Below, in pieces: positions 47,247 to 64,000 of a stretch of DNA of 64,000 nucleotides. Within the stretch, counting starts at the first letter, position 1. Each line of letters begins with the position of its first letter. The notes beneath the pieces are model-generated. The model had not been told where the DNA came from. It ran no database searches and was given only the letters and a program-made list of their open reading frames with translations. The position numbers and the translations under genes are program-made. Source of the DNA: an uncultured Gemmatimonadales bacterium (GTDB lineage: Bacteria > Gemmatimonadota > Gemmatimonadetes > Longimicrobiales > RSA9); assembly GCA_963708135.1 (NCBI GenBank), contig OY970192.1, forward strand, positions 2,624,001-2,688,000, read 5' to 3'.

Positions 47247-47250
47247 GCTC

Positions 47251-48069
47251 TCAGTTCCCGCGGAGGTAGACCTGCGTGGTCAGCGAGTCGGCGTAGACGC
47301 GTGCGCTGGACGACCCGGTTCCGGGGGTCAGGCCCTTGGCGGTGATAGTGACGAGGGCGATGTTGGCCGGGTTGATCGTGGCCGCGCCGCTAGCGTCGAG
47401 GTAGCCGAGCACCAGGCCGTTCTGGGCCGGGGGCGCCAGCGGACCGATCAGCGCGACGGCGGTATCGCCGGCGATGCGCCGGCCGAGCGACCACTGGCCG
47501 GCGATCTGGTAGAGGCCGTAGGTGACCCAGCGGAAGGAGCGGACGGGCGCATCCTCGAGCACGCCCGAGAGCGCGCTGCCGGAGATGCCGCCGATGCGAT
47601 CATCCGTGGTCCCGGGCCAGCTCGTCGAGCAGGTCGTGTGTGAGGGCGTGTTCGCCACGCCGGTCACGTTCCAGGCGTCATCGCCACCGGTGTCGGGCGC
47701 ATGGTCGGCGAAGATGAGGATGCTGTCGTCCTTCGCGAAGTCGAGGGTGCCCATGCGGTGCACGTCGATGGAAGGGCCGGTCGCGTCGGTGGTGCAGACG
47801 AAGCCGACCTTCTCGAGGACGCGAAACCGGATGGAGTCGGTGGAGGCCATGGCGATGTCGCCGCCATTGGCGCTCGACTGGCGGAGCTCGGCGGCAAGGA
47901 CCTGGACGGCGGTGCGCATGGTCTGCTGCGTCGTGATGACGGCATTGAGCTGACGGCTGGTCCGCTCCTGGACGGCGAGGGTCTGGTAGACCGCGCTCAT
48001 GACCACGGCGCCGAGCACGACGACGATCAGGAGCTCCACGAGCGAGAAGCCGGCGCGGCGGGCGGTCAT
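47251..48069 (-). CDS. PilW-like minor pilin (cassette 1)
   Basis: MTARRAG|FSLVELLIVV; ELRQ; C-terminal VYLRGN. Confidence 0.8.
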   Translation of the reverse strand: MTARRAGFSLVELLIVVVLGAVVMSAVYQTLAVQERTSRQLNAVITTQQTMRTAVQVLAAELRQSSANGGDIAMASTDSIRFRVLEKVGFVCTTDATGPSIDVHRMGTLDFAKDDSILIFADHAPDTGGDDAWNVTGVANTPSHTTCSTSWPGTTDDRIGGISGSALSGVLEDAPVRSFRWVTYGLYQIAGQWSLGRRIAGDTAVALIGPLAPPAQNGLVLGYLDASGAATINPANIALVTITAKGLTPGTGSSSARVYADSLTTQVYLRGN

Positions 48070-48482
48070 GATCCGAACGGGCGGAAGAAGCTGACGACAA
48101 AGGTGTCGGCCGCGGTCGTGCTCCAGCCGTGGCCGAGGACGTAGCCGGGTCCGCGCGTAATGAAGGCGACGCTCTTGAAGTTGACCTGCCCGTTCACGCT
48201 CGCCCCATTGGTCACGTTCCACCAGACATTGTAGCCGTCGTAGGCGACGGCGCTGCCGGCGGCGCGGTTCACGATGCCGTCGAAGTTGGTGAGGCGCATG
48301 CTCTCGGCGGCCTCGGCGACGGCCGCCATCCGATGCGACCGCAGTCCGGCGACGCGGACCTGGACGCTCATGAAGGTCGAGGATGCGGCGAGGCCGAGAA
48401 GCCCGACGGTCAGGATGACCATCGCGGCCATGACCTCGATGAGGGTGAACCCCTGGCGCCCGTCGTGCGAGGCCGGACTCAT
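48066..48482 (-). CDS. PilV-like minor pilin (cassette 1)
   Basis: RQG|FTLIEVMAAMVILTVGLLGL. Confidence 0.82.
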   Translation of the reverse strand: MSPASHDGRQGFTLIEVMAAMVILTVGLLGLAASSTFMSVQVRVAGLRSHRMAAVAEAAESMRLTNFDGIVNRAAGSAVAYDGYNVWWNVTNGASVNGQVNFKSVAFITRGPGYVLGHGWSTTAADTFVVSFFRPFGS

Positions 48483-49000
48483 AGGCGATCGACCTGCCCG
48501 AGAACCTGGACACGGGCGCTGTAGGCCTGATCCGCGCGCGTGAAGGTCACGGTCTGGGGAAGGTCTCCGTTGGAGCAGGAGGAGAGGGCGAACCCGCGCG
48601 GACCGTAGCAGACCACGACAGTGGCATTGTCCGACGTCGAGACGGCGGTACCGTACTGGGTGCGGAAGTAGATGACGTCGATGGTTCCGGACGTATCCGT
48701 GATCCGTGCGAGGGCGCTGTCCGGCTTCAGCGTCATGGTTACGGTCTCGCCGCGCTCGAGCGCGTTGCTGCGGGCCCTGTTGGCGAGCCATGTGTAGGAG
48801 TCGCGGGCGGCGTGCGCGGCGGTGGAGCGCTGCGCAGACTCGAAGCCGGAGGTGGCCATCCCCAGGAGCACCGTGGAGATGAGGAGGACGAAGAGGAGCT
48901 CGATCATGGTGAAGCCCGCGCGCACGCCACGCGGCCGCCGGCGCGTCGCGCCGGGTGCCGTCGGGCGCAGACTCCACGCGCGTCGGGCTGATCGGATCAT
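48479..49000 (-). CDS. FimT/FimU-like minor pilin (cassette 1)
   Basis: RAG|FTMIELLFV; AR..A; YGPRG; C-terminal G.V; RBS GGAGG; start 49000 or 49006. Confidence 0.78.
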   Translation of the reverse strand: MIRSARRAWSLRPTAPGATRRRPRGVRAGFTMIELLFVLLISTVLLGMATSGFESAQRSTAAHAARDSYTWLANRARSNALERGETVTMTLKPDSALARITDTSGTIDVIYFRTQYGTAVSTSDNATVVVCYGPRGFALSSCSNGDLPQTVTFTRADQAYSARVQVLGQVDRL

Positions 49001-49193
49001 CTTCACCTCCGGAAATCGGCGCGCCCGGCGCGGATGGATACCGGCCGGGGGCTTGCCGGGCCGGGCATACGAGTTCCGTGCCCGGGGCCAAGGCGCACCG
49101 CGACAACGATTTGCGGTACGAGTCCGGCTTGCCCGCCGGAAAAATTGTATCGGCTCCCGGTACTCTTTTCGACGTCATTCGAGCGCCATGCCG

Positions 49194-50429
49194 TCAGAAG
49201 AGCGGGATCCACCAGCGGCCCGAGGGCCGGAGCGGGCGGTCGAAAGCGGAGCGCAGCAGCGCCTCGATAAGCGGGCAGGCGCGGTAGGCGATCGCTCCCG
49301 CGATGCTGGACGGCGAGACGGAATCCGATGCCGCCCCCGCGGCGGGGGAGGCGGGCACGCCGGCGATGCGGACGGCTCCCTCGATGCTCGCGCCCGCGTC
49401 GATCTCGAGGCTCGCCCCGACGAGCACGGCGCCGAAGAACCGCGCCCGCCCGCGGACTACGAGCCTGCCACCGACCGCGAGCACGCCCTGCCCGACCCCG
49501 CCGTCGATGACCAGGTCCCCCGGGGCGAAGATGAGCGGGAAGTAGGCGCCGCAGGGCGCGGTCGGGTCGAGCGGCGCTCCCCAGTTGGCGGGCGCGGTGG
49601 CGAGGCAGGTGGCGCCGTCGTCGACCGGCGCGGGCCGCAGTGTGCCGCTCTCGGTACGATCGGCCAGTCGGCCGATGTCGTTCCAGGTGAGCGGCCCGAG
49701 GCCGCCGCCGCCCGGCGCATCCGCCGGGGCGGCGGCGGTCGGAGCGAGCGCGGGGTCGACGAGCAGCAGCGGTTCGCCCAGCAGCGTGCCGGGCGCCGCA
49801 TCGACGAGCGCGGCGTCCGGCGCCGCGAGCGCGGGATGCAGGGGCCCGCCGAAGACGGCGGCGAGCGTATCGGCGGCGCTGGCAGGGTCGCACGTGGCCG
49901 TCGCCATACCGGCCGCCGGCGCGGTGGCATCGACGCGGGCGCCGGCCGCGGTCGCGATGGGCGCGCCGGTGGTGAGGGCCGCGGGGAAGGGGGCGAGGAG
50001 CTCGCGCAGCTCGAGTGCTCGGACCCGCACGCCCGCCAGCGCGCGCGCCCGTCCGCTCTCGCCGCTCTCGCCGCTCTCGCCTCGGGCGCGGAGAAGGAAG
50101 GCGCCGGGCCCGAGACGCTCGACGGAAACGGCTGCCTGGTCGGGAGGCGCCGCCGCGATCCCGGGCGCCGGCATCTGCTGCCCGGGCGCGAGCGTGCGGT
50201 AGCGGCTGGTGCTCCAGCCGGCGAGCGCGGCGCGAGCGGCGGAGCCCGCGGCGGCGCGCGCACGGAGTGTGGCTGTCCGGGCGTGCGCCACCAGCACCTC
50301 TTCGGCGGCGACGAAGACGAAGGCGCCGATCAGCAGGGCCAGCGCGGTGAGCGCCAGCACGGTGATGACGAGGACGATGCCGGGCCTGCCGGCGGGCTTT
50401 CCGAGCTGCCTGCTCACGGCCTTGCTCAC
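49194..50429 (-). CDS. PilX-like minor pilin (cassette 2)
   Basis: RPG|IVLVITVL; shares NWGAP..C..Y.P.I.A.GDL.I...GQGVL with 46056..47246. Confidence 0.72.
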   Translation of the reverse strand: MSKAVSRQLGKPAGRPGIVLVITVLALTALALLIGAFVFVAAEEVLVAHARTATLRARAAAGSAARAALAGWSTSRYRTLAPGQQMPAPGIAAAPPDQAAVSVERLGPGAFLLRARGESGESGESGRARALAGVRVRALELRELLAPFPAALTTGAPIATAAGARVDATAPAAGMATATCDPASAADTLAAVFGGPLHPALAAPDAALVDAAPGTLLGEPLLLVDPALAPTAAAPADAPGGGGLGPLTWNDIGRLADRTESGTLRPAPVDDGATCLATAPANWGAPLDPTAPCGAYFPLIFAPGDLVIDGGVGQGVLAVGGRLVVRGRARFFGAVLVGASLEIDAGASIEGAVRIAGVPASPAAGAASDSVSPSSIAGAIAYRACPLIEALLRSAFDRPLRPSGRWWIPLF

Positions 50430-51199
50430 CGGCCGCCTCCACCTGCGGGAATGCCCGGCGCCGCGGGCGTGTCCGGCGGCGGCGCGTTCAGGAACGGGAT
50501 GTAGAGGTCGGGCGGGGGCATCCGGGGTACGCCGCCGGCCGCCGGCAGCCGCAGCCGGACCCGGACGCCACCCGGGACGGAGTCGAAGCCGGCGTCACGC
50601 GTGTCGAGCCGCTCGGCGGTGAGCGGCTGCCGGCCTCCCAGCGCGCGACGGTAGCGGAGCGCCCCCGACGCGAGCAGGTAGGTGCCGCTCTCGAACACGA
50701 GCACGACGGTGCCGGGGGGCGGCGGCGCCGCCAAGCTCCAGCGCTGGGCGACCGCCGAGTCCGTCGGGTGCGTCGGGTCCGCCAGGCTCACCGGGCACGC
50801 GCCGGGCGCGGGAGCGGCCCCGGCGAGCGCCTGCGCGCTTTCCCCGGCCGCCGCCTCGGCGAGCACCGAGTCCTTCGCGGGGTCGGGTTCGCGCATGCCG
50901 TGATAGGCGACGACGGCGGCTCCCGCCTCCGCGGCGCACACGATCCCGCCGCCGCGGAACCAGCGGCCGGCGAGCGAGTCGGCGCCCAGGGCGCGGATGT
51001 CGGTGGCGGGATCGAGCCAGGGCAGCTCACCGCCGAGCACGTGCCCGACGGTGCGGACCGCCTCGGCATCCTGGACACTCTCGGCGGTGGCGCGCGAGAA
51101 CCGGAGCTGCACCTGCAGGATTCCCGCGACGGCGGCACAGACGAAGGTGCCGAGCGCCAGCGCGACGACCAGCTCGAGCAGCGAGGTGCCCCGCCTCAT
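50426..51199 (-). CDS. PilW-like minor pilin (cassette 2)
   Basis: MRRG|TSLLELVVAL; G.VC and KDS.L segments shared with 47251..48069. Confidence 0.72.
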   Translation of the reverse strand: MRRGTSLLELVVALALGTFVCAAVAGILQVQLRFSRATAESVQDAEAVRTVGHVLGGELPWLDPATDIRALGADSLAGRWFRGGGIVCAAEAGAAVVAYHGMREPDPAKDSVLAEAAAGESAQALAGAAPAPGACPVSLADPTHPTDSAVAQRWSLAAPPPPGTVVLVFESGTYLLASGALRYRRALGGRQPLTAERLDTRDAGFDSVPGGVRVRLRLPAAGGVPRMPPPDLYIPFLNAPPPDTPAAPGIPAGGGGR

Positions 51200-51573
51200 C
51201 GCGCGCCGTCCAGCCGGGGCGCCGAGACGGCGCCGATCACGTCGAAGCTCAGGGAGCGCCGCTCCGCGCCCACGCCATAGCTGGCGTCCAGCCGCACCCG
51301 CAGGACGCCATTCTCGCCGCGGGCGACGGACCAGCGGACCGCGATGCCGCCGGCGCTTCGCTCGCCGGGGGCCGGATCCCGCTCGGCCACCAGCGAATCG
51401 AGCAGCGCGGCCGCGAACGTGGCCGCGCGCGTCTCCGTCTCGGCCGCGCGCAGGTGCCTCGCCCCCCAGCCGCCGGCCGCCGCCGCTGCGAGCGCGCCCA
51501 TGCCGAGGAGCACCAGGGCGAAGACCACCTCGACCAGCGTGAAGCCGCCGCGACCCCGCGCGCGCGTCACCAC
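51196..51573 (-). CDS. PilV-like minor pilin (cassette 2)
   Basis: RGG|FTLVEVVFALVLLGMGAL. Confidence 0.75.
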   Translation of the reverse strand: MVTRARGRGGFTLVEVVFALVLLGMGALAAAAAGGWGARHLRAAETETRAATFAAALLDSLVAERDPAPGERSAGGIAVRWSVARGENGVLRVRLDASYGVGAERRSLSFDVIGAVSAPRLDGAR

Positions 51574-52013
51574 CGGCGTGCCCGCCCGTAGGAGGAGATG
51601 GTCAGGCCGGCTTCCGCGGCGCCCCGGCGGAGCCGGATCGTGCGGCTCGCGATCTGCCCGAGGCCCAGTCCGTCGAAGCGGAGGACGACGGGACGGCCGG
51701 CCGAGCCATCCATGCTCATGCGCACGCCGTAGTCCCCGGCGAGGCGCAGCGGCGGCGGCGAAGCGCCGCGGACAACCTCGATGCGGGCCGTCCCCGTGGC
51801 GGGATTGAGGACGAGCAATGCGCCGCCCGCCGCCACGGCCGCGAGCCGGGTGCGGCCGAGATACGCGGCGAGCGCGTCACGGGCCGTCTCCGAGGCCACC
51901 ACGTCAACGGCGCGATGCAGGGGCGGCATGGCCAGCCCGAGCAGGACGGCCATGACGATGAGCGCGAAGATCAGCTCGACGAGCGAGACTCCGGGACGGT
52001 CGGGTGCGCGCAT
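51567..52013 (-). CDS. FimT/GspH-like minor pilin (cassette 2)
   Basis: MRAPDRPG|VSLVELIFAL; FDGLG; C-terminal ISSYGRAR. Confidence 0.75.
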   Translation of the reverse strand: MRAPDRPGVSLVELIFALIVMAVLLGLAMPPLHRAVDVVASETARDALAAYLGRTRLAAVAAGGALLVLNPATGTARIEVVRGASPPPLRLAGDYGVRMSMDGSAGRPVVLRFDGLGLGQIASRTIRLRRGAAEAGLTISSYGRARRW

Positions 52014-52066
52014 GGGCCCAATGGTGCAATGCCGGATGGGGCGGAGCCATGGCTGGACGAGACGAT

Positions 52067-52563
52067 GGGGTGCGGAGGGGGCCGGGGGCGGGGGGCGGGG
52101 GGCGGGGGGGGCGGCCGGGGCGGGTGGCCTGGGTGGGATGCGCGGGCGGAAGGGGGGGCCGGGGCGGGGGGCGGGGGCGGGCTGCGCGGGCGGGCAGGGG
52201 TCGCAAGGGGCGGGCGGGGGGCCGGGGCGGGTGGCCGGGGTGGATGCGCGGGCGGGCGGAAGGGAGGGCGGACGGGCGGCCGGGGCGGGTGGGCTGCGCG
52301 GGCGGAAGGGGGGGCGGACGGGCGGCCGGGGCGGGTGGCTTGGGTGGGCTGCGCGGGCGGAAGCGGGGGCGGACGGGCGGCCGGGGCGGGTGGCTTGGGT
52401 GGGCTGCGCGGGCGGAAGGGGGGGCCGGGGCGGGGGGCGGGATGCGCGGGCGGGCAGGGGTCGCAAGGGGCGGGCGGGTGGCCTGTGTGTGGGATGCGCG
52501 GGCGGAAGGCGGCCGGAGCGGGTGGCCGGGGCGGCACGCGCGGGCGGGCGGCGGCAGGGCGGG
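52067..52563 (+). repeat. G-run-rich degenerate tandem repeat tract (G-quadruplex potential)
   Basis: Dozens of G3-G7 runs on the plus strand; eight copies of TGCGCGGGCGG 38-62 bp apart; recurring GGCCGGGGCGGGTGG; two copies of GCAGGGGTCGCAAGGGGCGGGCGGG. Confidence 0.85.
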
Positions 52564-52570
52564 CGCCGTG

Positions 52571-52730
52571 AACTCCCCACGCGCCCCGGGGCGCGTGGGG
52601 AGTTGACCGCGCTATTCGTTGGCAACTCCCCAAGGACCGGAGGCCCACGGGCACGATTGGGGACTTTACCGCGCTATTCGCAGGCAAGTCCCCAAGCGTC
52701 GATTCCAGGGCGGACGCGTGGGGACTTTCC
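52571..52730. repeat. Perfect 34-bp palindrome plus two 39-bp palindromic direct repeats and a partial third
   Basis: AACTCCCCACGCGCCCC|GGGGCGCGTGGGGAGTT at 52571-52604; TGGGGA(G/C)TT.ACCGCGCTATTCG..GGCAA(C/G)TCCCCAAG at 52596 and 52658; TGGGGACTTT at 52719. Confidence 0.8.
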
Positions 52731-53036: not shown

Positions 53037-54392
<1,356 letters not shown>

Positions 54393-54412
54393 GGGGAGAG
54401 ATCCGAGCCCGG

Positions 54413-54580
54413 TTAGAAGAGCTGTCTGGCGATTCTGCCGCCGAGATAGATGCCGTAGCCGCCGGCGATGGTGGCCAGCACGTAGGCGGTGAAGGTGCCG
54501 ACCATCGCGCCGACCCACCAGCCGAGCGTCGACAGGACGGTGCTGGCGGCGGCGCGGATCATCCAGCTGCCGGTTCTCAT
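54413..54580 (-). CDS. Small two-helix membrane protein (~55 aa)
   Basis: [66 protein letters not shown]. Confidence 0.6.
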
Positions 54581-54650
54581 GTGTCCACTCCCTTCGTCAG
54601 GAGGTCGCCGGGCCGTCGGCCGCTCCGTGCGGCGGGCCCGGACCCAGCGT

Positions 54651-55949
54651 TCAGCCCCGTGCTCCCGCAGGCGACGTCTCCGCCAGCGGGGCACCGGTCG
54701 TTTCCCGGTCCGCGAGCTGCTCGAGCGCCGGGATCCCGATGGTGAAGCGGGCACCCCCGCTCTCAGGGGACTCGGCGCGGATGGTGCCGCCCATGTTGTC
54801 CACGAGGCGGGCGGAGACGGCCAGGCCGAGGCCGGTGCCCTTGCCGGGCTCCTTCGTGGTGACGAACGGCTCGAAGATCTGGTCGAGCAGCTCCGGGGGA
54901 ATACCGGGGCCGTTGTCGGCCACCGTGATCTCGACCACCGTGCCACCCGGCGTGAAGGGATCCTCCTGCGGCAGCCGGCCGGAGGCGAAGAGGCGGCGGC
55001 GGTGCGAGTAGTCGATGCCGGGCGGATCGTCCTTCCGGCGCGCGGGCCTGTACGGCAGCGGGTAATGGACCCGGGTGGCGGAGCGGATCTCGATGCTGCG
55101 CTCCCGGCGGCCGGCGAGGGCGTCGCCGGCGTTGACGAGCAGATTGACGAGCACCTGCTGGAGCTGGTAGGGGTCGGCCTCGACGGCAGGGAGGTCCGCG
55201 CCGAGCTGTGTGCTGACCTGGATGCCGGTGAAGCGCCCCTGGGTCTCGATGAGCTCGAGGGTCTGCCCGATGACGCCGTTCACATCGATCGAGCGGGTCT
55301 TCACATCGCGGGTGCGGGCGTAGTCGAGCAGGCCCCGCACGATGCGATCGATGCGCCGGGCCTCCTGCTCGGCGGCGACAATGAGCTCCTTCTTCTTGCT
55401 GTCCAGCCCCCTGCCGACGAGCCCGAGATAGCCGAGGATGGCGCCCAGCGGATTCCCGACCTCGTGCGCGATGCCGGAAGCGAGGCGGCCGACGGACGCC
55501 ATCTTCTCCGCGCGCACCATGGCGTTCCTGGCATCGGTCAGCTGCCGGTTGGTCTCCTCCAGCGAGCGGATGTTGGCCGAGAGCGCGTCCTGGTGGTTGA
55601 TCAGGCGCTCGGCCATGCCGTTCACCGCGTCGGCCAGGCGCGCCATCTCGGCGGTCTCCGGCTGGGGCAGCCTGGTCGTGTACTCCCCCTGCGCGATGTT
55701 CTCGACCGCGGCCAGCATACGCTGGATCGGCGTGAGCACACGGCGCTGAACGAGGTAGCGGCCGAAATAGAGGAAGACGGCGAGGTCGGCCGCCATCAGC
55801 GTACCGACGTACAACACCCGCTCCCCGGCGCTCTCGAGGCGGGGGACGAGGAACAGCAGCGCCGTCGCGGCGACCAGCAGCGCGCCTACGAACACCAGCG
55901 CGAGCGCGGCGACGAGCTCCCGGCGAAGGGTCGGCAGTGGTGGTTTCAT
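54651..55949 (-). CDS. Sensor histidine kinase (2 TM, HAMP, HisKA, HATPase), PilS-like position
   Basis: [37 protein letters not shown] and [18 protein letters not shown] motifs. Confidence 0.92.
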
Positions 55950-56475
55950 GCCATCCGGAGAAGGTTGCCCCAACGCGAAGATGGGGCCGAGGCAAGGGGT
56001 CTGGCAAGGATTGCCGGTTTGCGGGACGTGGGACGCGGGATCGTGTCCGGCGCCCGAGCGGCTATTCGTCGCGATCCATGGATCTCGAGCTCGACACTTG
56101 CCGGCGAGCGCGAGATCGCGGAGCCGGCGCGGGCGATCCGCCGGCGAGGCTCTCTCTCGCAGAGCTCGCAGCCGGATCACGAACAGCCATGAGGCGCAAT
56201 GGGCGCCGGCGAAGCGGCGAGCGAAATCGCGCAATGGGCGCCGGCGCGCTGCTCGCGATCGAGATTTCGCTCGCCTGGCGGGAGGAATCTCGTACGCATG
56301 GTGCGGGGGCCGGGTCGCATACGATATCCATCTCGCTCAGCGAGACGAAGCTGGATGGCGCGCATCGAAAGCGCGGACAGGGCGAGAAATCGCTCGCTCC
56401 ACAGGAGTGCGGACGGGCACGCGGGGCGAGGAAGCGCGCATCCTTGAGTCCCTGGCCATCGGGGCCGGCAGCGAA

Positions 56476-56964
56476 TCAGTTGCAGGCGATGATGTCGTCC
56501 GTGGTGGCGGGGGCCGCCACGCCCGAGGGGGCGTTGCCGATGAAGATGCCGCACTGATGGCCGGGATAGCCCGCGTGGTCCGCCGTCGCGGCCCAGCCAC
56601 CATGAGCGGAGTAGGTGATGCTGAGCGTGACGCTCGGGCTCGGCTGGAAGTTGGCGACCGCCGGATCGGAGGCGTAGATGCCGTTGGAGGCGTAGTAGAT
56701 CTCCTGCTGGATGGAGAGCACGCGCAGGTCGTTCTGGAGCGTGGCCAGCATGGCGCGCTCGCGGACCTTCGTGAAGCTGCCGGCGACGATGGAGGCGAGG
56801 ATACCGATGATGACGACGACGAGAAGCAGCTCGATGAGCGTGAACCCGGCGCGGCACGGCGGCTCGTGATCGCGCGCGGCGGCGGGATGGCGGGCCGCCC
56901 CCGCCCGGGGGTGAGCGAAGGAGGCGGAGCGGCGGGCAGCCAGCTCAAAGGGGCGCGGGATCAT
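56476..56964 (-). CDS. Type IV pilin paralog
   Basis: RAG|FTLIELLLVVVIIGILASI; RERA......DL......QEIYY; C-terminal Cys pair; ATG overlaps the upstream stop. Confidence 0.82.
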   Translation of the reverse strand: MIPRPFELAARRSASFAHPRAGAARHPAAARDHEPPCRAGFTLIELLLVVVIIGILASIVAGSFTKVRERAMLATLQNDLRVLSIQQEIYYASNGIYASDPAVANFQPSPSVTLSITYSAHGGWAATADHAGYPGHQCGIFIGNAPSGVAAPATTDDIIACN

Positions 56965-58703
56965 GAAGCGCTCCTGGCCGTGGCCGCGGCGGTCGGCACA
57001 CGCTGGAAGATGACGTACATGCGGAAGAGGGCGATGAGGTGGTAGTGCGCGCTGAACTCCGCGGCGAAGCGCGGGTCGCGGAGGAAGTACTGGAGGTAGT
57101 CGAAGTGGGCCATCGCCCGCGATGGGCCGACCCGGTCGACGATGAGGAGCGTCGGGCGGGCGCGCAGGAAATCCTCGACGTAGGCGTCCGCGAGCCAGTG
57201 CTCCGCGGGGCTCGTGTGCGCCGGGTCATGATAGGGGAAAGGGTCCGGCTGCCCGGTGACCTCGGGATACAAGCCCGCCAGGGGCCAGAGGGAGTTGAAG
57301 CGGGTGGCCCAGCCGATGCCGGTCAGGTTCACGAGCGGGAACCCGGCCTGGAGCTGCGTCGAGAGGACCATGATCGGCCCCTTCCCGGCATCGCGCTCGA
57401 CGAGTTCGAGCATGGCGGGGAGGTAGTAGGGGTAGCCGGCGTAGTAGCCGACCGGAGCCGGGTGACGGGCGCGCTGCCCGGCCGAGCCGAGCATGACGGC
57501 GGCAATGCCGAGGAACGCGAGCGAGCGCGCGGCAGCGACGTGCGTGGCGATCCGGGGCCGCTCGCCCAGACGGCGCAGGGCGTTGACGAGCACCACGACG
57601 AGGAGCAGCAGCGCGGCGGAGAGCACGGGCAGCCAGTGGTAGTCCCAACCCTTGCGCTCCCAGAGCAGCGCGGCCAGGAACCCGAGCATGACGAGCAGGA
57701 GCAGACGCCGCAGGTGGCGCAGCTCGGGCCGGCCCGGCACGAGGACGGCGGCCAGGGCCGCGGCGAGAACGAGGGCGCCCTTTGAATTCAGCAGCAGCCA
57801 ACTGTAAGGCTCGGGAACGAACCCGGCGTACGTGGCCCAGGCGAACTTCGCGATGCCCAGGTAGGCGGGCGTGAGGACGAGCACGCCGACGAGGTAGAGT
57901 CCGATCGCGGCCGCTGCCGCGAGGCACTCGGGGCGGCGTACGGCGCGCCGCCAGCCGCTCGTCGCGAGCAGATACAGCTCCACGGGCAGCAGGACCAGCA
58001 GGAAATACGGCTTGAGGGCCACCGCGAGGCCGGCAGCGATGCCGATGCCGACGGCCGCGCGCGGGGAGATGTCGCGCCGCTCGGCGCGCAGGGCGGCGAG
58101 AACCAGGTAAGGCAGGAAGAGGGCGAACATCAGGTGCTCGCGCTGCCCGAACTCGCGCCCGGCGAAGGGGAAGAGCAGAAAGGCCGCGAATGCGACGAGG
58201 AGGCGGCGGCCGGCGTCGCCGAGGGAGAGGCGGCGCAGCAGCAGTGCTGTGGCCAGCAACGCGCTGGCCGCGACAAGTCCCACGAAGACGGGAAACAGGA
58301 CCATGTCCGAGAGGCCGAGCGCGCGGGCGGCCCCCTCCACGGCGAGCGCGAAGCCGACGATCAACGGGGGGTTGACCTCGATGACGTCGCGGTACAGCAC
58401 GGCGCCGCCGAGGACCCGGTGGGCGACGTAGAGCAGCCAGGCATGGTCGTGGTTGATCGGGACCGCGAAGAGGGCGACGTAGGCGAACAGGCAGACGGCG
58501 GCGGTAACGACCAGCCAGAAGGCGCGGGCCGCGCTCAGCCGGCGGGCGAGCTCGAGCGGCCCGGCGGCCGACGCGGAATCCCGGTGGCCCGCCCGGGGAG
58601 CTCCCGGGACCGGCCGGATCGACCGCAACGGGCGTTCGACGGCAGCGCGGGGGGCGGGCGGGGCCACACGGCCCCGCAGCACCTGAGAGACTGGCTCCGT
58701 CAC
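56961..58703 (-). CDS. Multi-pass membrane protein, putative GT-C-fold glycosyltransferase
   Basis: Many TM segments; first loop NHDHAWLLY...LYRDVIEVNPPL; FGQREH, ALKP and KGWDYH motifs; soluble C-terminal domain. Confidence 0.62.
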   Translation of the reverse strand: MTEPVSQVLRGRVAPPAPRAAVERPLRSIRPVPGAPRAGHRDSASAAGPLELARRLSAARAFWLVVTAAVCLFAYVALFAVPINHDHAWLLYVAHRVLGGAVLYRDVIEVNPPLIVGFALAVEGAARALGLSDMVLFPVFVGLVAASALLATALLLRRLSLGDAGRRLLVAFAAFLLFPFAGREFGQREHLMFALFLPYLVLAALRAERRDISPRAAVGIGIAAGLAVALKPYFLLVLLPVELYLLATSGWRRAVRRPECLAAAAAIGLYLVGVLVLTPAYLGIAKFAWATYAGFVPEPYSWLLLNSKGALVLAAALAAVLVPGRPELRHLRRLLLLVMLGFLAALLWERKGWDYHWLPVLSAALLLLVVVLVNALRRLGERPRIATHVAAARSLAFLGIAAVMLGSAGQRARHPAPVGYYAGYPYYLPAMLELVERDAGKGPIMVLSTQLQAGFPLVNLTGIGWATRFNSLWPLAGLYPEVTGQPDPFPYHDPAHTSPAEHWLADAYVEDFLRARPTLLIVDRVGPSRAMAHFDYLQYFLRDPRFAAEFSAHYHLIALFRMYVIFQRVPTAAATARSAS

Positions 58704-58770
58704 GCAGCGCCTCCGTCGGCAGTTCGGATCGAGACCGGTGGCTTCAGGGCGAGATGAGACCGGTCGGACG

Positions 58771-58804
58771 AAAAGCGGGGCGGCGGCACCATGCCGCCGC
58801 CCCG
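58771..58804 (-). terminator. Intrinsic terminator after the major pilin gene
   Basis: Minus strand CGGGGCGGCGGCA-TGG-TGCCGCCGCCCCG-CTTTT. Confidence 0.8.
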
Positions 58805-58833
58805 ATCACGCGAGAACCAGCAGGTGTGCCCGG

Positions 58834-59238
58834 TTACTCGCCCTTGCAGGTGACGACACCGGCGATCGTGGCCGGAGCAGCGTCTCCGGAGACCTCGCCG
58901 CCGTAGAACACGCCGCAGCTCTGCGTGCTCGCATCCAGCGCCGCGTGCACGGCCGTGAAGGCGTACCCGGTGGCGTCGGCCTTGCCCGCGACGGTCACGC
59001 CCGAGGAGGGCGAGAAGTCGAGGCTGGCCTGGCTGGTCGTGTAGGAGTAGGCGTTGTTCGAGTTGTAGTAGATCTCCTCCTCGGACATGAGGTTCTTCAG
59101 GTCCGACTTCATGGCCGAGAAGTACGCCTTCTCGCGCGTCTTGCTGAACTTGGGGATCGCGATCGCGGCCAGGATGCCGATGATCACGACCACGATCAGC
59201 AGCTCGATGAGCGTGAAGCCCTGCCGTACCTTGAGCAT
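58834..59238 (-). CDS. pilA: Type IVa pilin, probable major pilin
   Basis: MLKVRQG|FTLIELLIVVVIIGILAAIAIPKF; RBS AAGGAG; own terminator; C-terminal Cys pair. Confidence 0.88.
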   Translation of the reverse strand: MLKVRQGFTLIELLIVVVIIGILAAIAIPKFSKTREKAYFSAMKSDLKNLMSEEEIYYNSNNAYSYTTSQASLDFSPSSGVTVAGKADATGYAFTAVHAALDASTQSCGVFYGGEVSGDAAPATIAGVVTCKGE

Positions 59239-59312
59239 CGTTGCTCCTTGAATGAGTGTCGGGGCGTGGACGACTCTTGCCCGGATAGGGCTGGCGACCA
59301 CGGCTTCCAGTG

Positions 59313-59327
59313 GCAAGAGGCGAACCG
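59313..59327 (-). promoter_or_regulatory. Candidate sigma-54 promoter of pilA
   Basis: Minus strand CGGTTCG-CCTC-TTGC (GG-N10-GC); TTGCA/TGCAA repeats at 59429-59459 are a possible activator site. Confidence 0.5.
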
Positions 59328-59465
59328 CTTCCGCGCGTGGCCGTCTCGATCCACAGAAGTCATTGGAACGTAATGGTTTCTGTTGGCACGGCCGATTGAC
59401 TGCGCTCGCCACTCCGGGCGCGCTCCCCTTGCATTCTGCAATACCGGCGCAGTTTGCAACGGCGC

Positions 59466-61328
59466 TCACGGCCACCGGATCTCCGCCTCCGCCCGGCGGA
59501 TGCGGTCGGCGCTGGCGGAGTCCCGGGGTGAGCGGGCGCGGGCGCTGTCGAGGGCGGCGCGGGCGGCGGCGCCGTCGCGGAGCGAGGTGTAGGCGCGGCC
59601 GAGCATGAACCAGCGCTTCCAGCCATCGCCATCGGGGAGTGCGAGGGCGCGCCCGAGCGTGGCGGCCTCCTCGGCGTGGCGGCCCAGATCGCGCAGCGCT
59701 TCCGCGCGCAGGTCGAGGAGGCCGGGCGTGGGGCCGCCCAAACGCTCAGACTGATCGAACCGGGCCAGCGCCTGCTCGAATCTGCCCGTCTTCAGCAAGG
59801 CCAGGCCGCGGACGAGGGCGGTGCCCGGGTTGCCCGGCTGGACGGAGTCGGCGCGCTGAAGGAGCGCCATGGCCCGCCCGTACCGCGCCCTCCCGACCTC
59901 GAACATGCCGAACTCGGTCAGGAACTCGCCGTCGTCGGGATAGAGCATGAAGGCGAGATCCCAGTGCCGCGTGGCGGCGACGCTGTCGCCGGCCGCGGCG
60001 GCCCGCGAGGCGGCCGACCACTGGGCGCGGTAGGACTCGGGGTGATCGCGGAGCAGGCCGGCGAAGAGCGCCTTCGTGCTGGCCCAGTCGGGGTTTCGCA
60101 CGATGCTCCTCGCCGCGCAGAGGGTCAGGACGAGGAGGAGGAGGGCCCGGAGCGGTCGTGTCCGGGGGGCGGGGGCGGCGGCGAGTGCCTCCCAGGCGAA
60201 CGCCGCCACGGCGGCAACAGCCACGGAAGGGAGGAAGAGCGTCCGCTCGGCGAGGATGACGCCGATGGGGAAGAACAGGTTCGAGACGGGGAGCACGGCG
60301 ACGAGGAACCATGCGGCCGGCAGGCCGAGCCGGGGCTGACGCGGCGTGAGCGCGGCGAGCGCAACCGTCGCGATCAACAGGAATCCACCCAGGAGCACCA
60401 TGGGCGAGAGGGCGGTCACGGGCAGGATCACGGCGGGGGAGTAGTCGGCCGAGAGGTCGAGCGGGAAGAAGAGGAGCCGCGCGTACTCGGGCCAGGCCCG
60501 CAGCGCCGTCAGCACGCGGTGCGGTCCGCGCAGGAACGGGAACCACGGGCCGGCATCGGCGCCGGCGACGGCGCCGAGGACGTGGACGCGCAGGAGCAGG
60601 TACGCCGCGGCGACGGCGCCGAGCGCGACGAAAGCCGGGGCGAGCCGGCGGGCGGCGTGTTCCAGCTCCCTGCGGGTGAAGGTGATCCGGCCCTGCGCGA
60701 GGTCGAGTACGAGGAGGAGGGCCGGCAACACGATGGCGCCCTCCTTGGCCAGGAGTGCGAGCGCGTAGAGGGCGGCGACGGCCGCGAGCCGGCCGGGCGG
60801 GACGCGCAGGCCGGCGGGCCGGCCGAGCCAGAGGACGCAGGCCCCGAGCACGCCGGCGGCAGCGATGAGCTCGGCCTGGCCCACGACGTTCGCGACGACC
60901 TCGGTGTGGAGCGGGTGGACGGCGAACAGGACGGCGCCGAAGAGCGCGGCGTCCGGGCCGGCCAGGCGGCGGAGGAGTAGCAGGACCAGCACGGCGACGG
61001 CGGCGGCGAGCAGCACGCTAACGAGATGGAACACCCACGGCGCCCCGCCGCCGAGCACCCACTGGAGCGCGAAGCCGAAGATGGTCAGGGGGCGGTAGAG
61101 GCCGAGCTGCCCGCCGCCCTTCATGAACCAGTACGGCGTGAGCCAGAGGGTGGCCTGGTGGTGCAGGGTATGGACGCGGGGGTCGCCGGCGATGATGTAG
61201 ACATCGTCGTACGCGAAACCGTTGGCGAGGGAGTTGGCGTAGGTCGCCAGGGTCGCGGCGAGGACGGCCACCAGCGACACAGCGAGGCGCGATGGCCACG
61301 TACGGAAGTCAGCGCGCAAGCTTCGCAT
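59466..61328 (-). CDS. TMTC-like (protein O-mannosyltransferase-like, GT-C) membrane protein with C-terminal TPRs
   Basis: FAYDD, YRPLT, FH, HPLHTEVVANVVGQAE, AKE, LSADY and AERTLFLPS motifs, then TPR-like helices. Confidence 0.85.
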   Translation of the reverse strand: MRSLRADFRTWPSRLAVSLVAVLAATLATYANSLANGFAYDDVYIIAGDPRVHTLHHQATLWLTPYWFMKGGGQLGLYRPLTIFGFALQWVLGGGAPWVFHLVSVLLAAAVAVLVLLLLRRLAGPDAALFGAVLFAVHPLHTEVVANVVGQAELIAAAGVLGACVLWLGRPAGLRVPPGRLAAVAALYALALLAKEGAIVLPALLLVLDLAQGRITFTRRELEHAARRLAPAFVALGAVAAAYLLLRVHVLGAVAGADAGPWFPFLRGPHRVLTALRAWPEYARLLFFPLDLSADYSPAVILPVTALSPMVLLGGFLLIATVALAALTPRQPRLGLPAAWFLVAVLPVSNLFFPIGVILAERTLFLPSVAVAAVAAFAWEALAAAPAPRTRPLRALLLLVLTLCAARSIVRNPDWASTKALFAGLLRDHPESYRAQWSAASRAAAAGDSVAATRHWDLAFMLYPDDGEFLTEFGMFEVGRARYGRAMALLQRADSVQPGNPGTALVRGLALLKTGRFEQALARFDQSERLGGPTPGLLDLRAEALRDLGRHAEEAATLGRALALPDGDGWKRWFMLGRAYTSLRDGAAARAALDSARARSPRDSASADRIRRAEAEIRWP

Positions 61329-62964
61329 CGATGGCGCGGGCCATCTTCGTCATGAGGTCGTCGCCGGGGGCGAGACGCAGCCCGGCCCGGAGCGCCGCGC
61401 GCGCGGTCGTGGTATCGCCGCGGTCGAGGGCGGTGGCGGCGAGGACGCGCTGGATCTCGGGATGGTCGGGCCAGCGCCGGGCCGCGCGGCCCGCGAGCGC
61501 CTGGGCACGATCCAGATGGCCGGCCGCGATGGAGGTTTCGGCGGCCTCGATCGGCGCCCAGGGGAGGTAAGGCCAGAGCGGCAGTGCCCGGGCGTACTCG
61601 CGCTCGGCCAGGCCCAGATCGCCGTCGTTGCGTGCGAAGCGGGCGAGGAAGAGGTGCGCGCGAAAGTCGTCGGGCCGGTCCCGCAGCTCGGCGATGAAGA
61701 TGCTCTCGGTGGAGTGCCAGTCGCGAATGCGCAGCTCGGTCCTCGCCACGAGCAGGAGGGCGACGACGGCAAAGGCGAATCGCGGGACCGCGCGCGAGAC
61801 CTGGCTGCGCCGGAGCACGCGGTCGAGGCCGGCGGCGGCCACCGCCAGCGCGAACAGCGGCAGATACAGCGTCCGCTCCGCGAGCACGATGCCCGTGGGG
61901 AACAGGAGATTGGAGACGGGCAGCATCAGGAGCGGCACCCAGAGGAGTGCGAGCGCGGTGCGCCCCCGGCCTCGGACGAGCGCGTAGATGCCGCCGGCGA
62001 GAACGGCCGCGAGCAGCAGCAGGCCCAGCACGGCGCTCGCGCTCCATCCGTGGGGCGGCATGAAGATGCGGGGACCGTAGTCGGCGAGCAGCGTGCGCGG
62101 GAAGAAGAAGAGGCGCAGCACGCTCGGCCAGACGCCGAGCGCGACGAGCAGGCGGGGTCCGGTCGCGGTCACGACATCGAAGAGCGGGTTCACCTGCCTG
62201 GCGGTGAGGTGCCCGAGCACGGCGAGGCGCAGGGCAAGGAAGGCGATCACCGCGGCGCCCAGGGCGGCATACGCGCCAGCGCGCGCCTTCAGGTAAGCCC
62301 CCAGACTCGCACGGCCCGGGCGCCAGCGTCCGAGCGCGCCGTCGAGAAGCAGCAGCGCCGCGGGCAGCATGACGGCGCTTTCCTTCGAGAGTAGCGCGAG
62401 CGCGAAGAGGAGCGTCACGGCGGCCGTGCGCCGGACGGACGGGCCCGACCCCGGCGCCGCGGTCCAGGCCAGGCAGGCCGCCAGGAAGAAGACCGAAGCC
62501 ATGATCTCGGCCCTGCCCACGACGTTCGCCACGGCCTCGACATGGACCGGATGGACGGCGAAGAGGATCGCGCCGACCAGCGCGGGGCGGGTGGAGAAGA
62601 AACGTCGCAGGAGCAGGAAGACGAGCACGGATGCCGCCACATGCCATAGCAGGCTCGTGAAGTGGAACCAAGCCGGCGAGCCACCGGACAGCGCCCAGTC
62701 CACGGCGAAGCCGAGCGTCGTGAGCGGGCGGTAGAGCGCCATGTCGGCCCCGTTCGCGCCCCAGTAGGGTAGCGTCCAGATCCGCGGGAACGACGCGAGG
62801 GCGTGAACGCGCGGGTCGTTCACGATCACCGCCACGTCGTCGTAGGCGAAAGCGTTACGAAGCGAGAGCGCGTAGGCGGCTCCCGCCACGAGCGCCACGA
62901 GCGCGGCGGCGGCGGTGGGGCGCGACGTGGAACCGACGCCCGTGTCGGGCCCGTCAGGAGTCAT
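61309..62964 (-). CDS. TMTC-like membrane protein with TPRs, paralog 2
   Basis: FAYDD, YRPLT, HPVHVEAVANVVGRAE, SKE, LLADY and AERTLYLP motifs. Confidence 0.85.
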   Translation of the reverse strand: MTPDGPDTGVGSTSRPTAAAALVALVAGAAYALSLRNAFAYDDVAVIVNDPRVHALASFPRIWTLPYWGANGADMALYRPLTTLGFAVDWALSGGSPAWFHFTSLLWHVAASVLVFLLLRRFFSTRPALVGAILFAVHPVHVEAVANVVGRAEIMASVFFLAACLAWTAAPGSGPSVRRTAAVTLLFALALLSKESAVMLPAALLLLDGALGRWRPGRASLGAYLKARAGAYAALGAAVIAFLALRLAVLGHLTARQVNPLFDVVTATGPRLLVALGVWPSVLRLFFFPRTLLADYGPRIFMPPHGWSASAVLGLLLLAAVLAGGIYALVRGRGRTALALLWVPLLMLPVSNLLFPTGIVLAERTLYLPLFALAVAAAGLDRVLRRSQVSRAVPRFAFAVVALLLVARTELRIRDWHSTESIFIAELRDRPDDFRAHLFLARFARNDGDLGLAEREYARALPLWPYLPWAPIEAAETSIAAGHLDRAQALAGRAARRWPDHPEIQRVLAATALDRGDTTTARAALRAGLRLAPGDDLMTKMARAIDAKLAR

Positions 62965-64000
62965 GGGACCTCCCGGGCGGCGGAGCGCCGACGGAGCGGC
63001 CGATGCGGGCGAGCACCGTGTCCGCGGGGCTCACGCGCAGCCCGGCGAGCACGGCGCCGCGCGCGAGCGCGGGGCGTCCGAGGTCGAGCGCGCTGCCGGC
63101 GAGGACCCGATAAAGGGAGATGCTGCGCGGCCAGTGCTCCGTGCCCCAGCGGGCGAGCGCCAGGGCGTAGGTGTCGTGCCGGCGCTTGTGGCTCAGGTCC
63201 GCGGCCTCCCAGATGAGGTGCTCGCGGTACGGCCAGAGCGCGATGGCGCGGGCGTATTCGGCGGCCGAGCGGGCATCGGCATGGTCGACGCGGGCCATGC
63301 GGGCGAGGTGCCAGTGGCCGCGGAAGGCGTCGGGACGGTCGCGGACGAGGGCCTCGAAGATCCGGTTTGTGCCCTCCCACTCCGGGACCCGCAGGGCGGA
63401 GCGGACGCCGAGCGCGAGCAGCACGAGGATGCCGGCGGCGAGCGCGGGGCGGCGCAGGCGCAGTGGCGCGCGGACGGCGGCCTCCGCCAGCGCGGCGGCG
63501 CCGAGGGAGAGCGCGAAGAAGGGCAGATAGAGCGTGCGCTCGGCCACGAGGACGCCCACGGGGATGATGAGGTTCGAGACCGGCAGGATGGCGGTCGGGA
63601 ACCAGAGGAGCGCGAGGACCGCGCGGCGGCGGCGGGCGACGAGCGCGGCGGCGCCGATTCCCAGCAGGGCGGTGAGGAGGACGAGTCCGAGCAGCGCGGC
63701 GGGCGTCCAACCGTGGAGCGGCATGGTGATGCGCGGCGCGTAGTCGACGAGCAGCGTGCGCGGGAAGAGGGCGAGCCGGAGCCAGATCGGCCAGGCCTGG
63801 AGCGCGGTGATCATGCGGAGCCCGCGGCCGTGCAGCACCTCGAGCGTGGGATCCAGGATGCCGGGCCCGACGCGGCCGAGCACGGCGAGGCGCGCGGCGA
63901 GATAGAGGCCGAAGGTCGCCGCGAGCGCGGCCAACGCCCGGCCGCGTACGCGCAGGTAGGCGCGGAGCCGGGCGGGGCGCAGGTCCCAGCGGCCGATAGC
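62954..64000 (-). CDS. TMTC-like membrane protein with TPRs, paralog 3 (5' end outside the window)
   Basis: Frame is open to the window edge; LFPRTLLVDY, LPVSNL, AERTLYLP and RDRPDAFR segments match paralogs 1 and 2. Confidence 0.82.
   Translation of the reverse strand, partial: AIGRWDLRPARLRAYLRVRGRALAALAATFGLYLAARLAVLGRVGPGILDPTLEVLHGRGLRMITALQAWPIWLRLALFPRTLLVDYAPRITMPLHGWTPAALLGLVLLTALLGIGAAALVARRRRAVLALLWFPTAILPVSNLIIPVGVLVAERTLYLPFFALSLGAAALAEAAVRAPLRLRRPALAAGILVLLALGVRSALRVPEWEGTNRIFEALVRDRPDAFRGHWHLARMARVDHADARSAAEYARAIALWPYREHLIWEAADLSHKRRHDTYALALARWGTEHWPRSISLYRVLAGSALDLGRPALARGAVLAGLRVSPADTVLARIGRSVGAPPPGRSHDS

Follow-up and report, generated by a model that had tools for sequence, protein, structure and literature searches.

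Genes for a putative pilin O-glycosylation system of the TfpW/TMTC kind beside pilA in an uncultured Gemmatimonadota bacterium

Three overlapping genes for GT-C glycosyltransferases with C-terminal tetratricopeptide repeats (TPR) were identified directly upstream of pilA, the gene of the major type IVa pilin, in a stretch of 64,000 nucleotides (nt) of contig OY970192.1 (positions 2,624,001 to 2,688,000; in the following, the window). As a gene system this array is real and well supported. It probably encodes a periplasmic pilin O-glycosylation system of the kind represented by the bacterial pilin glycosyltransferase TfpW and the animal TMTC proteins, as judged from sequence comparisons. The window is part of a single-contig genome (5.45 Mb, 72% G+C, 97.65% complete), and its nearest named relatives are Gemmatimonadota, for the most part Longimicrobiales. 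The array forms the 5' end of a type IV pilus region on the minus strand, which contains pilM-Q-like genes, two minor-pilin cassettes and a sigma-54 regulator pair; the pil gene names were assigned by reading the translations. The genes in question are:

59466-61328, minus strand: paralog 1 (P0002), 620 amino acids (aa); pilA-proximal, long-TPR class (VVGQAE)
61309-62964, minus strand: paralog 2 (P0001), 551 aa; 11 membrane helices (read from the model), then TPR; pilA-distal, short-TPR class
62954-64000, minus strand: 3' part of paralog 3; pilA-distal, short-TPR class (VVGRAE, LLVDYAPR)
58834-59238, minus strand: pilA, major type IVa pilin, 134 aa with a 7-residue leader and two Cys; proposed acceptor

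The initial annotation had described three overlapping, co-oriented paralogs directly upstream of pilA, which coordinates and strand confirmed. The overlaps amount to 20 nt and 11 nt, and the array lies 227 nt upstream of pilA. The gene of paralog 3 extends 654 nt beyond the window; the whole gene (genome 2686954-2688654) encodes 566 aa. Paralogs 1 and 3 are 42-50% identical to paralog 2. Of the "at least three" transferases expected, three were found and no more, as tblastn revealed no further copy in the 5.45-Mb genome. The motifs FAYDD, HPxHxE, [SA]KE.A, DY and AERTL[YF]LP are common to all three paralogs, with the variant ERTLF in paralog 1. The motif YRPLT, also expected, is present in paralogs 1 and 2 and reads WRPLT in paralog 3. 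In paralog 2 the motif residues are D42/D43, R79-P80, H138/H141/E143, K194-E195, D295-Y296 and E363-R364; D42, D43, R79, H141, E143, K194, E195, E363 and R364 are invariant across 121 homologs. The C-terminal TPR region was detected by Pfam in paralogs 1 and 2 and in the structure model of paralog 2; for paralog 3, which gave no Pfam match, it was deduced from the alignment alone.

The model of paralog 2, based on an alignment of 121 rows (pLDDT 93.0, pTM 0.92), contains 11 hydrophobic helices according to our reading of the DSSP assignment, followed by TPR from about residue 420. The best match was AglB (3waj) with Z 20.8, 4.1 A and 325 aligned residues, followed by STT3B (Z 19.7), ArnT (Z 19.1) and Pmt2 (Z 19.0); overall, AglB, STT3B, ArnT, Pmt, ALG12 and PglB were matched with Z 18-21 and TPR domains with Z 17.7. 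The same templates are reported for the human TMTCs in the accessible text of PMC7801869. Foldseek returned mostly TPR proteins, with oligosaccharyltransferases at E 2e-4 to 1e-3, and the sequence search of solved structures gave TPR matches only among the matches listed. No TMTC, TMEM260 or TfpW chain was among the fold matches listed.

Homology to the TMTC family is clear by a transitive route, through bacterial proteins positive for the Pfam model TMTC_DUF1736 (PF08409). With this model itself the best result was 16.7 bits (P0002, E 0.034, in the correct loop), below the cut-off of 27; E <= 0.05 was reached by 25 of 72 homologs, at best 8.6e-5. A hidden Markov model was built from the membrane domains of 112 bacterial proteins labelled PF08409 (119 matches minus 7 unlabelled). 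With it, the membrane regions of all three paralogs reached 215-239 bits, and the scores of the two other GT-Cs were negative. The profile of the paralog family in turn retrieved four proteins above the PF08409 cut-off with E 6e-72 to 3e-77, and a chordate DUF1736 cluster was found in the ESM Atlas at 0.93. The family comprises 35,278 clusters (50% identity) at E <= 1e-30, scores to which the TPR part contributes. Hence, apart from the missed Pfam cut-off, the assumed GT-C fold and TMTC/DUF1736 homology were borne out by profile and by structure (Z 19-21). The TMTC core motifs DD, YRP, KE and ER are retained (WRP in paralog 3). The exact TMTC motifs SHKSYRP, KET(Q)xxT and DW were unmatched; the paralogs have [LI][YW]RP without SHKS, KE[SG]A and DY. 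Because the Pfam cut-off was missed and these three motifs failed, the paralogs are not classed as TMTC orthologs. By homology and motif content they are divergent bacterial members of a TMTC-related GT-C+TPR group. The CAZy label of the TMTC family is GT105.

The proximity of enzyme and pilin genes is conserved in related genomes. Among the best 80 of 552 confirmed GTDB loci, a pilin gene was located within 1.5 kb in 57 cases and within 5 kb in 5; 11 loci ended at a contig edge and 7 had no pilin. An even sample of the phylum (111 genomes) contained the enzyme family in 64 genomes, 53 of them from the class of the window, its own genome counted. In these 53, tallied by hand, a pilin lay within 1.5 kb in 47 and within 3 kb in 2, the contig ended in 2 and the pilin was not adjacent in 2. 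Within the taxonomic family the enzyme was present in 45 of 73 genomes, with 1 to 4 copies; 38 were pilin-adjacent, 6 lay at contig ends and 1 was not pilin-adjacent. The three samples overlap, and kin among them are not independent. The link is kept despite inversion, as a divergent head-to-head layout was observed in loci L099, L175, L180, L181, L184 and L186.

The paralogs belong to a larger island between pilS-pilR and pilA (genome 2683466-2705651), which comprises 18 genes in 22 kb. Of these, 17 lie on the minus strand, and most genes overlap or almost overlap. Starting from pilR, the order is: Dpm1-like GT2, two GT2s, an unassigned gene, flippase, methyltransferase, GT4, two GT2s (one frameshifted), two GT4s, PMT_2 GT-C, methyltransferase, GT2 P0008, PMT_2 GT-C P0007 and the three paralogs. 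The initial annotation had recommended a search beyond the window for a polyprenol-phosphate sugar synthase and a flippase; both are there, as the Dpm1-like GT2 and a Polysacc_synt match. The positions are:

genome 2688647-2690326: PMT_2 GT-C P0007, adjoining paralog 3
genome 2690323-2704761: 13 variable island genes
genome 2704758-2705651: Dpm1-like GT2
genome 2705648-2707024: pilR; pilS from 2707024

The best solved match of the Dpm1-like GT2 was the dolichol-phosphate mannose synthase DPMS of Pyrococcus (5MLZ, E 8.8e-18), and an ortholog with 62-72% identity was present in 51 of the 80 GTDB loci. Several of the closest loci of the taxonomic family had no such gene in the 8-kb flank, probably because the islands are longer there; in four loci of the family that were followed beyond the flank, it was present. 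The minimal loci L042 and L346 consist of pilS-pilR-GT2-one enzyme-pilA. Homologs of P0007 (47-58%) occurred in 11 of 18 related loci compared, and P0007 is the strongest candidate for glycan extension. GT2 P0008 was rejected as the main donor synthase, with full-length orthologs in 2 of the 80 loci only. The label "ALG5-like", suggested by its motifs, was not confirmed by a check.

Some further observations concern the island. One GT2 is split by a frameshift (L001:19293-20000, L002:1-250), which is either a sequencing error or a pseudogene. Immediately ahead of the paralogs, many cassettes of the taxonomic family encode an amidotransferase resembling asparagine synthase and a Trm112-like methyltransferase (L033:8780-11699 and L055:5075-8016, both Pfam-checked), and genes of similar size were found at the same place in L034, L036, L038, L045, L051 and L054; both are missing from the island of this genome. 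Such cassettes suggest amidated or methylated sugars. A 272-aa island protein (L002:3860-4678) had no Pfam match; its N-terminal motif presumably resembles sulfotransferase P-loops.

The slot between pilR and pilA behaves like a swappable pilin-accessory cassette. Among 20 pilA loci of enzyme-less genomes, 8 had the regulator, identified mostly by size and position, directly beside pilA. In L225, also without enzyme, the slot contains two PMT_2 GT-Cs and a Dpm1-like GT2. A truncated enzyme remnant (profile positions 7-79) was detected between the Dpm1-like GT2 and pilA in genome G021 (L048:10092-10427), and in L222 and L228 the slot retains the GT2 alone; the cassette appears to be decaying in this family. 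Other enzyme-less slots contain unclassified membrane proteins of 498 and 651 aa with no Pfam match (L227:4901-6394, L238:5102-7054). A membrane protein of about 1020 aa with a spermidine-synthase domain, possibly a different pilin modification, lies beside pilins in the enzyme-less loci L233:5742-8834 and L240:1906-4947.

From this gene content, together with fold, motifs, homology and synteny, we infer activity, acceptor and sugar as follows. The Dpm1-like GT2 beside pilR would form a polyprenyl-phosphate monosaccharide at the cytoplasmic face; a hexose would be the likeliest sugar, and mannose is plausible. After flipping of the donor lipid, the GT-C+TPR enzymes would transfer the sugar to Ser/Thr of membrane-anchored PilA before assembly, and other pilins may also be acceptors. 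The DD pair of loop 1 would be the catalytic centre. The TPR domain may hold the acceptor as in TMEM260, an 11-helix GT-C whose luminal TPR domain recruits the acceptor peptide according to the accessible text of the preprint (bioRxiv 10.64898/2026.03.17.711096). GT2, one enzyme and pilA would form the minimal module, and the remaining enzymes of the island (PMT_2 GT-Cs, GT2s, methyltransferases) would probably extend or cap the glycan. As relatives retain the pairing of enzyme and pilin, a variant of the TfpW route probably gives the pilus a sugar coat. By analogy, the purpose is likely to be masking of the pilus from phages or tuning of its stability; protection from phages by pilin glycosylation is described for Pseudomonas in the accessible part of PMC11841053.

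Several results weigh against this reading. The HKS residues, modelled mannose contacts in TMTCs, are absent from the paralogs, so that the sugar is not readable from the sequence. A GtrA-type flippase (PF04138) was not found in the genome, and the GT4s, GT2s and flippase of the island may serve a separate polysaccharide. The same type of PilA occurred without the enzyme in 38 of 91 sampled genomes. Among the enzyme clusters of the class, 25 of 79 were without a pilin in the 4-kb flanks retrieved, and so were all 17 clusters fetched from other classes. No pilin was detected at any of 80 metagenome loci (42 of them >= 6 kb, some redundant) of the DUF1736-positive clade. This survey, made with a regular expression and a Gemmatimonadota PilA profile on 4-kb flanks, can also be taken as a negative control of the neighbourhood approach. 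The pilinless orphan and DUF1736-positive loci indicate that pilin linkage is clade-specific and not general to bacterial TMTC homologs. Since the kin are not independent, much of the synteny could go back to a single ancestral cluster.

The composition of PilA belongs to the same account. Ser and Thr make up 21 of 99 residues of its globular part. The cassette-1 minor pilins contain 20-23%, those of cassette 2 contain 9-12% and the background of long open reading frames is 11%. The Ser/Thr richness emphasized by the initial annotation for PilA and the cassette-1 minor pilins is therefore correct as composition, and it was rejected as strong evidence: the share is 0.23 beside the enzyme (n=49) and 0.20 without it (n=20), a small effect (nominal p 0.003; kin not independent) which also counts against the main reading. 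The complex prediction for P0002 and PilA scored 0.00 and counts neither way.

The orphan copies of the enzyme have miscellaneous neighbours, except for two beside PilB- or PilC-like genes. These two (L161:2064-5623, L170:4049-9157) adjoin a T2SSF (PilC-like) or T2SSE (PilB-like) gene and may therefore still be pilus-linked. In another class of the phylum (L204-L219), longer TMTC-like genes were observed in arrays of three near pantoate ligase, and single copies occurred next to lolA, with no pilin in view. No plasmid match was found for P0001 and no phage match for P0002; one orphan copy gave a single weak match to a haloarchaeal plasmid, and viral contigs gave no match. No RNA record was listed.

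A more specific version of the proposed route is possible, and we regard it as doubtful: Gemmatimonadota would have a bacterial counterpart of the animal TMTC route, in which polyprenyl-phosphate-mannose is formed by a Dpm1-like synthase and the mannose is attached to PilA by two evolutionarily fixed classes of TMTC homologs (one priming, one extending or site-specific). In that case TfpW and TMTC would represent branches of a single family, and its bacterial members would change sugar by exchanging the donor cassette. If this is true, the small bacterial enzymes would be tractable models of TMTC catalysis.

It was also considered that the enzymes act more broadly, on a range of proteins of the periplasm or surface (minor pilins, adhesins or, as for the TMTCs and cadherins, beta-sandwich proteins), PilA being one acceptor or only a co-regulated neighbour. 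The unrelated neighbours of most orphan copies, the pilin-free clade closest to the TMTC Pfam model (0/80), the high Ser/Thr content of the cassette-1 minor pilins and the number of paralogs, which could mean several acceptors, fit such a broader role. It is nevertheless unlikely, since all three copies of this genome lie at pilA, the pilin-linked members of the family form clades of their own, the link is kept after inversion and the slot degenerates as one unit, as in the G021 remnant.

Transfer of a whole glycan, as by TfpO or PglL, would employ a lipid-diphosphate oligosaccharide built by GT2s and GT4s, a Wzx-like flippase for export and one paralog. The three GT4s, several GT2s and Polysacc_synt flippase of the island would suit it, oligosaccharyltransferases are the top fold matches, and TfpW is described both as transferase and as oligosaccharyltransferase in the accessible text of the preprint (bioRxiv 10.1101/2020.04.19.049825). 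However, the conserved core holds a monosaccharide-lipid synthase only, the minimal loci L042 and L346 have neither GT4s nor flippase in the slot, and the flippase has no homolog in the 18 related loci compared, which makes block transfer quite unlikely.

A non-protein acceptor such as lipid A, a glycolipid or a polysaccharide, as for ArnT- or Gtr-type enzymes, would reduce the proximity of pilA to an old gene order. ArnT is among the top fold matches, and Dpm1/GtrB/ArnC-like GT2s are generally known to supply such enzymes. But ArnT is also given as the closest template of the TMTCs and TfpW, and the characterised GT-C+TPR enzymes TMTC, TMEM260 and TfpW act on proteins, as far as the accessible sources describe them; this explanation is very improbable.

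The paralogs fall into two conserved classes. In a FastTree tree of 203 membrane domains with midpoint root (partial and stop-containing rows excluded), paralog 1 was placed within the pilA-proximal clade of the family and paralogs 2 and 3 within the distal clade, with local support of 1.0 each. The proximal class is characterized by N[VM]VGQ[AG]E and a longer TPR region, the distal class by N[VI]VGR[AS]E and mostly LLADYGPR; thus, one position of loop 2 is Gln in the proximal class and Arg in the distal class. The pattern was also seen in further arrays where the motif was read. According to the tree, paralogs 2 and 3 are a duplication within the distal class. Gln is no mark of sufficiency, as the Arg form occurs in L346, a locus with a single copy. 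Long co-retention of both classes suggests divided labour, which could concern different sites, different pilins, or priming and elongation. That one paralog is catalytic and the others are scaffolds or pilin chaperones could be read from the loop-2 difference and from the single full-length copy on the pilA contig of about 14 of 37 family genomes, and is extremely unlikely with DD, HxxHxE, KE and ER intact in all three.

Around pilA the following further features were identified:

56961-58703, minus strand: P0003, a GT-C of 580 aa; start uncertain, first ~45 residues disordered
56476-56964, minus strand: second pilin (PilA paralog) with a 40-residue leader; AGGAG before the ATG, which overlaps the P0003 stop
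58776-58804, minus strand: terminator-like hairpin after pilA; 13 pairs, 12 of them G-C, then CTTTT
59313-59326, minus strand: sigma-54-like -24/-12 element (GG-N10-GC), about 75-90 nt before pilA
53037-55952, minus strand: HAMP histidine kinase (start uncertain) and sigma-54 response regulator, lying downstream of the pilins in a conserved context

P0003, located between the two pilins, had been described as a GT-C-like protein with an acidic first loop that overlaps the start of the second pilin and extends the glycan. Its stop does overlap the ATG of pilin 2, by 4 nt. The first loop contains D86, conserved in 97 of 98 family members, as well as D106 and E109, and no DD pair. The model has an ArnT/PMT-like fold with a C-terminal periplasmic alpha/beta domain and no TPR, and P0003 is unrelated to the paralogs. 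It matched Pmt2 (Z 21.8), ArnT (Z 20.7 over 437 residues including the periplasmic domain) and ALG12 (Z 19.9). P0003 resembles these GT-Cs in fold and in one conserved Asp of loop 1, but belongs to no named family: its own family of at least 113 proteins is unnamed, and no Pfam or NCBIfam match at E 0.01 was found, only a PMT_2 match below the cut-off.

Relatives of P0003 occurred in 24 of 72 other genomes of the taxonomic family; many of the contigs are short. Of their 32 copies (5 split pieces excluded) three are at the pil locus, each placed differently: one 196 nt behind the pilins, one behind the downstream regulator and one ahead of pilS. None among the relatives examined lies between two pilins. 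P0003 was rejected as a conserved extender, as none of 19 fetched loci of its protein family had a pilin within 1.5 kb and the neighbours were mixed. With copies at the pil locus in 3 of 24 other carrier genomes, and with a conserved second GT-C (P0007) outside the window, the role of glycan extender was not upheld; P0003 is a recurrent but sporadic add-on. It is located after the pilA terminator, a place of pilin accessory genes in Pseudomonas and others according to the accessible part of PMC11841053.

The leader of pilin 2 (56845-56964) comprises 40 residues, compared with about 6 in relatives. An out-of-frame GTG just 5' of the GFTLIE codons resembles the leaders of the relatives; a frameshift, or an insertion together with P0003, is possible. 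In a hairpin scan of 8.1 kb, 3 sites were found at a chance expectation of 1.9, and the stem after pilA was by far the longest. From the -24/-12 element, recognized with what we take to be the consensus, pilA appears to have its own sigma-54-type promoter; similar elements were seen by eye at the same position in many of 17 relatives. A sigma-70 promoter was rejected, with 0 sites found. TTGCA-rich inverted elements are located upstream of pilA (59430-59460), with apparently similar ones upstream of pilS (L002 ~10790-10830), and are possible sites for a sigma-54 activator. The two minor-pilin cassettes are located at 46056-52100, the second being Ala/Arg-rich. A long repetitive, very GC-rich region with repeated units (51900-52650) lies between the fimT-like gene and the response regulator.

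If the reading as pilin O-glycosylation is right, GT-C+TPR pilin glycosylation extends from the arabinofuranose lineages of TfpW to much of a common phylum that has hardly been cultured, with a different donor. Bacterial TMTC homologs, which the literature found mentions only in passing (prokaryotic homologs are noted in the accessible text of PMC7801869), would gain a named acceptor and a donor synthase. The minimal module of GT2, enzyme and pilA is suited to co-expression testing. With no TMTC structure among the fold matches listed, bacterial homologs, whose acceptor would be small and defined, could also serve as a structural model. The precedent of TfpW is known; phylum-wide reach, Dpm1-type donor synthase, TMTC link and the two paralog classes were not found in print. 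No paper describing pilin glycosylation in Gemmatimonadota, or linking TMTC homologs to pilins, was found in a search outside of which lay most subscription papers and the bioRxiv supplements. The term "glycosyl" does not occur in the accessible part of PMC5174107.

Compared with known systems, the paralogs share with animal TMTC1-4 the 11 membrane helices followed by TPR, the motifs DD, YRP, HPxHxE, KE, D-aromatic and AERxL in equal order, and transitive sequence homology via the DUF1736-positive bacterial proteins. In contrast to these, they remain below the PF08409 cut-off, lack SHKS before YRP, have KE[SG]A for KET/QxxT and DY for DW, contain fewer TPRs and have a pilin as proposed acceptor. 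The human O-mannosyltransferase TMEM260 has a Rossmann-like domain between the GT-C and TPR parts, which is not present in the model of paralog 2.

TfpO (PilO) and PglL transfer whole oligosaccharides, and PglL belongs to the WaaL O-antigen-ligase family (PMC3643930, accessible part). The paralogs gave no Pfam or NCBIfam match to such a domain at E 0.01, and their fold matches are GT-Cs of the PMT and oligosaccharyltransferase type. Alike are the periplasmic O-glycosylation of pilin from a lipid-linked donor and the position of tfpO, which adjoins pilA.

The closest comparison is TfpW, for which the following is taken from the accessible text of its preprint (bioRxiv 10.1101/2020.04.19.049825). 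TfpW is the pilin D-arabinofuranosyl transferase of Pseudomonas aeruginosa group IV / P. paraeruginosa (Pa5196, PA7) and adds D-arabinofuranose oligomers to several Ser/Thr of the pilin. It has 646 aa, 11 predicted membrane helices, a DDX in loop 1 and a C-terminal TPR, with ArnT as closest template, and its gene is directly downstream of pilA in several species. The initial annotation knew of no characterised example and treated TfpW as a different kind of enzyme. Both statements have to be revised, as TfpW is a GT-C with loop-1 DDX and TPR, encoded beside pilA, which O-glycosylates pilin Ser/Thr, and its described architecture is that of the paralogs. The full loop-4 motif YX6PFX7P of TfpW had no exact match in the three paralogs; its core YX6P is conserved (Y296, P303), and two paralogs fit the EmbC form YX6PX5P. 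The NCBIfam scans gave no match to any TfpW model. An arabinofuranose donor was rejected, since pathway genes were not found in the 97.65% complete genome: DprE1-type (PF04030) none, DPPR synthase (NF008978) 24 bits at a cut-off of 207, GtrA (PF04138) none. The search covered these three accessions, all of which were positive in the Corynebacterium control. With the YX6P core only, no arabinofuranose pathway found and a resemblance taken from descriptions, the paralogs are not classed as TfpW. They differ from it further by their position upstream of pilA inside a pilSR-pilA island, by 1-4 copies in two conserved classes and by the Dpm1-like GT2 at their loci. By description, and not by sequence, paralogs and TfpW are alike in the GT-C with 11 membrane helices, loop-1 DD, C-terminal TPR and ArnT-like fold, in a length of 550-650 aa, in the pilA-adjacent gene, in the Tyr-x6-Pro of the fourth periplasmic loop and in the Ser/Thr-rich pilin beside them.

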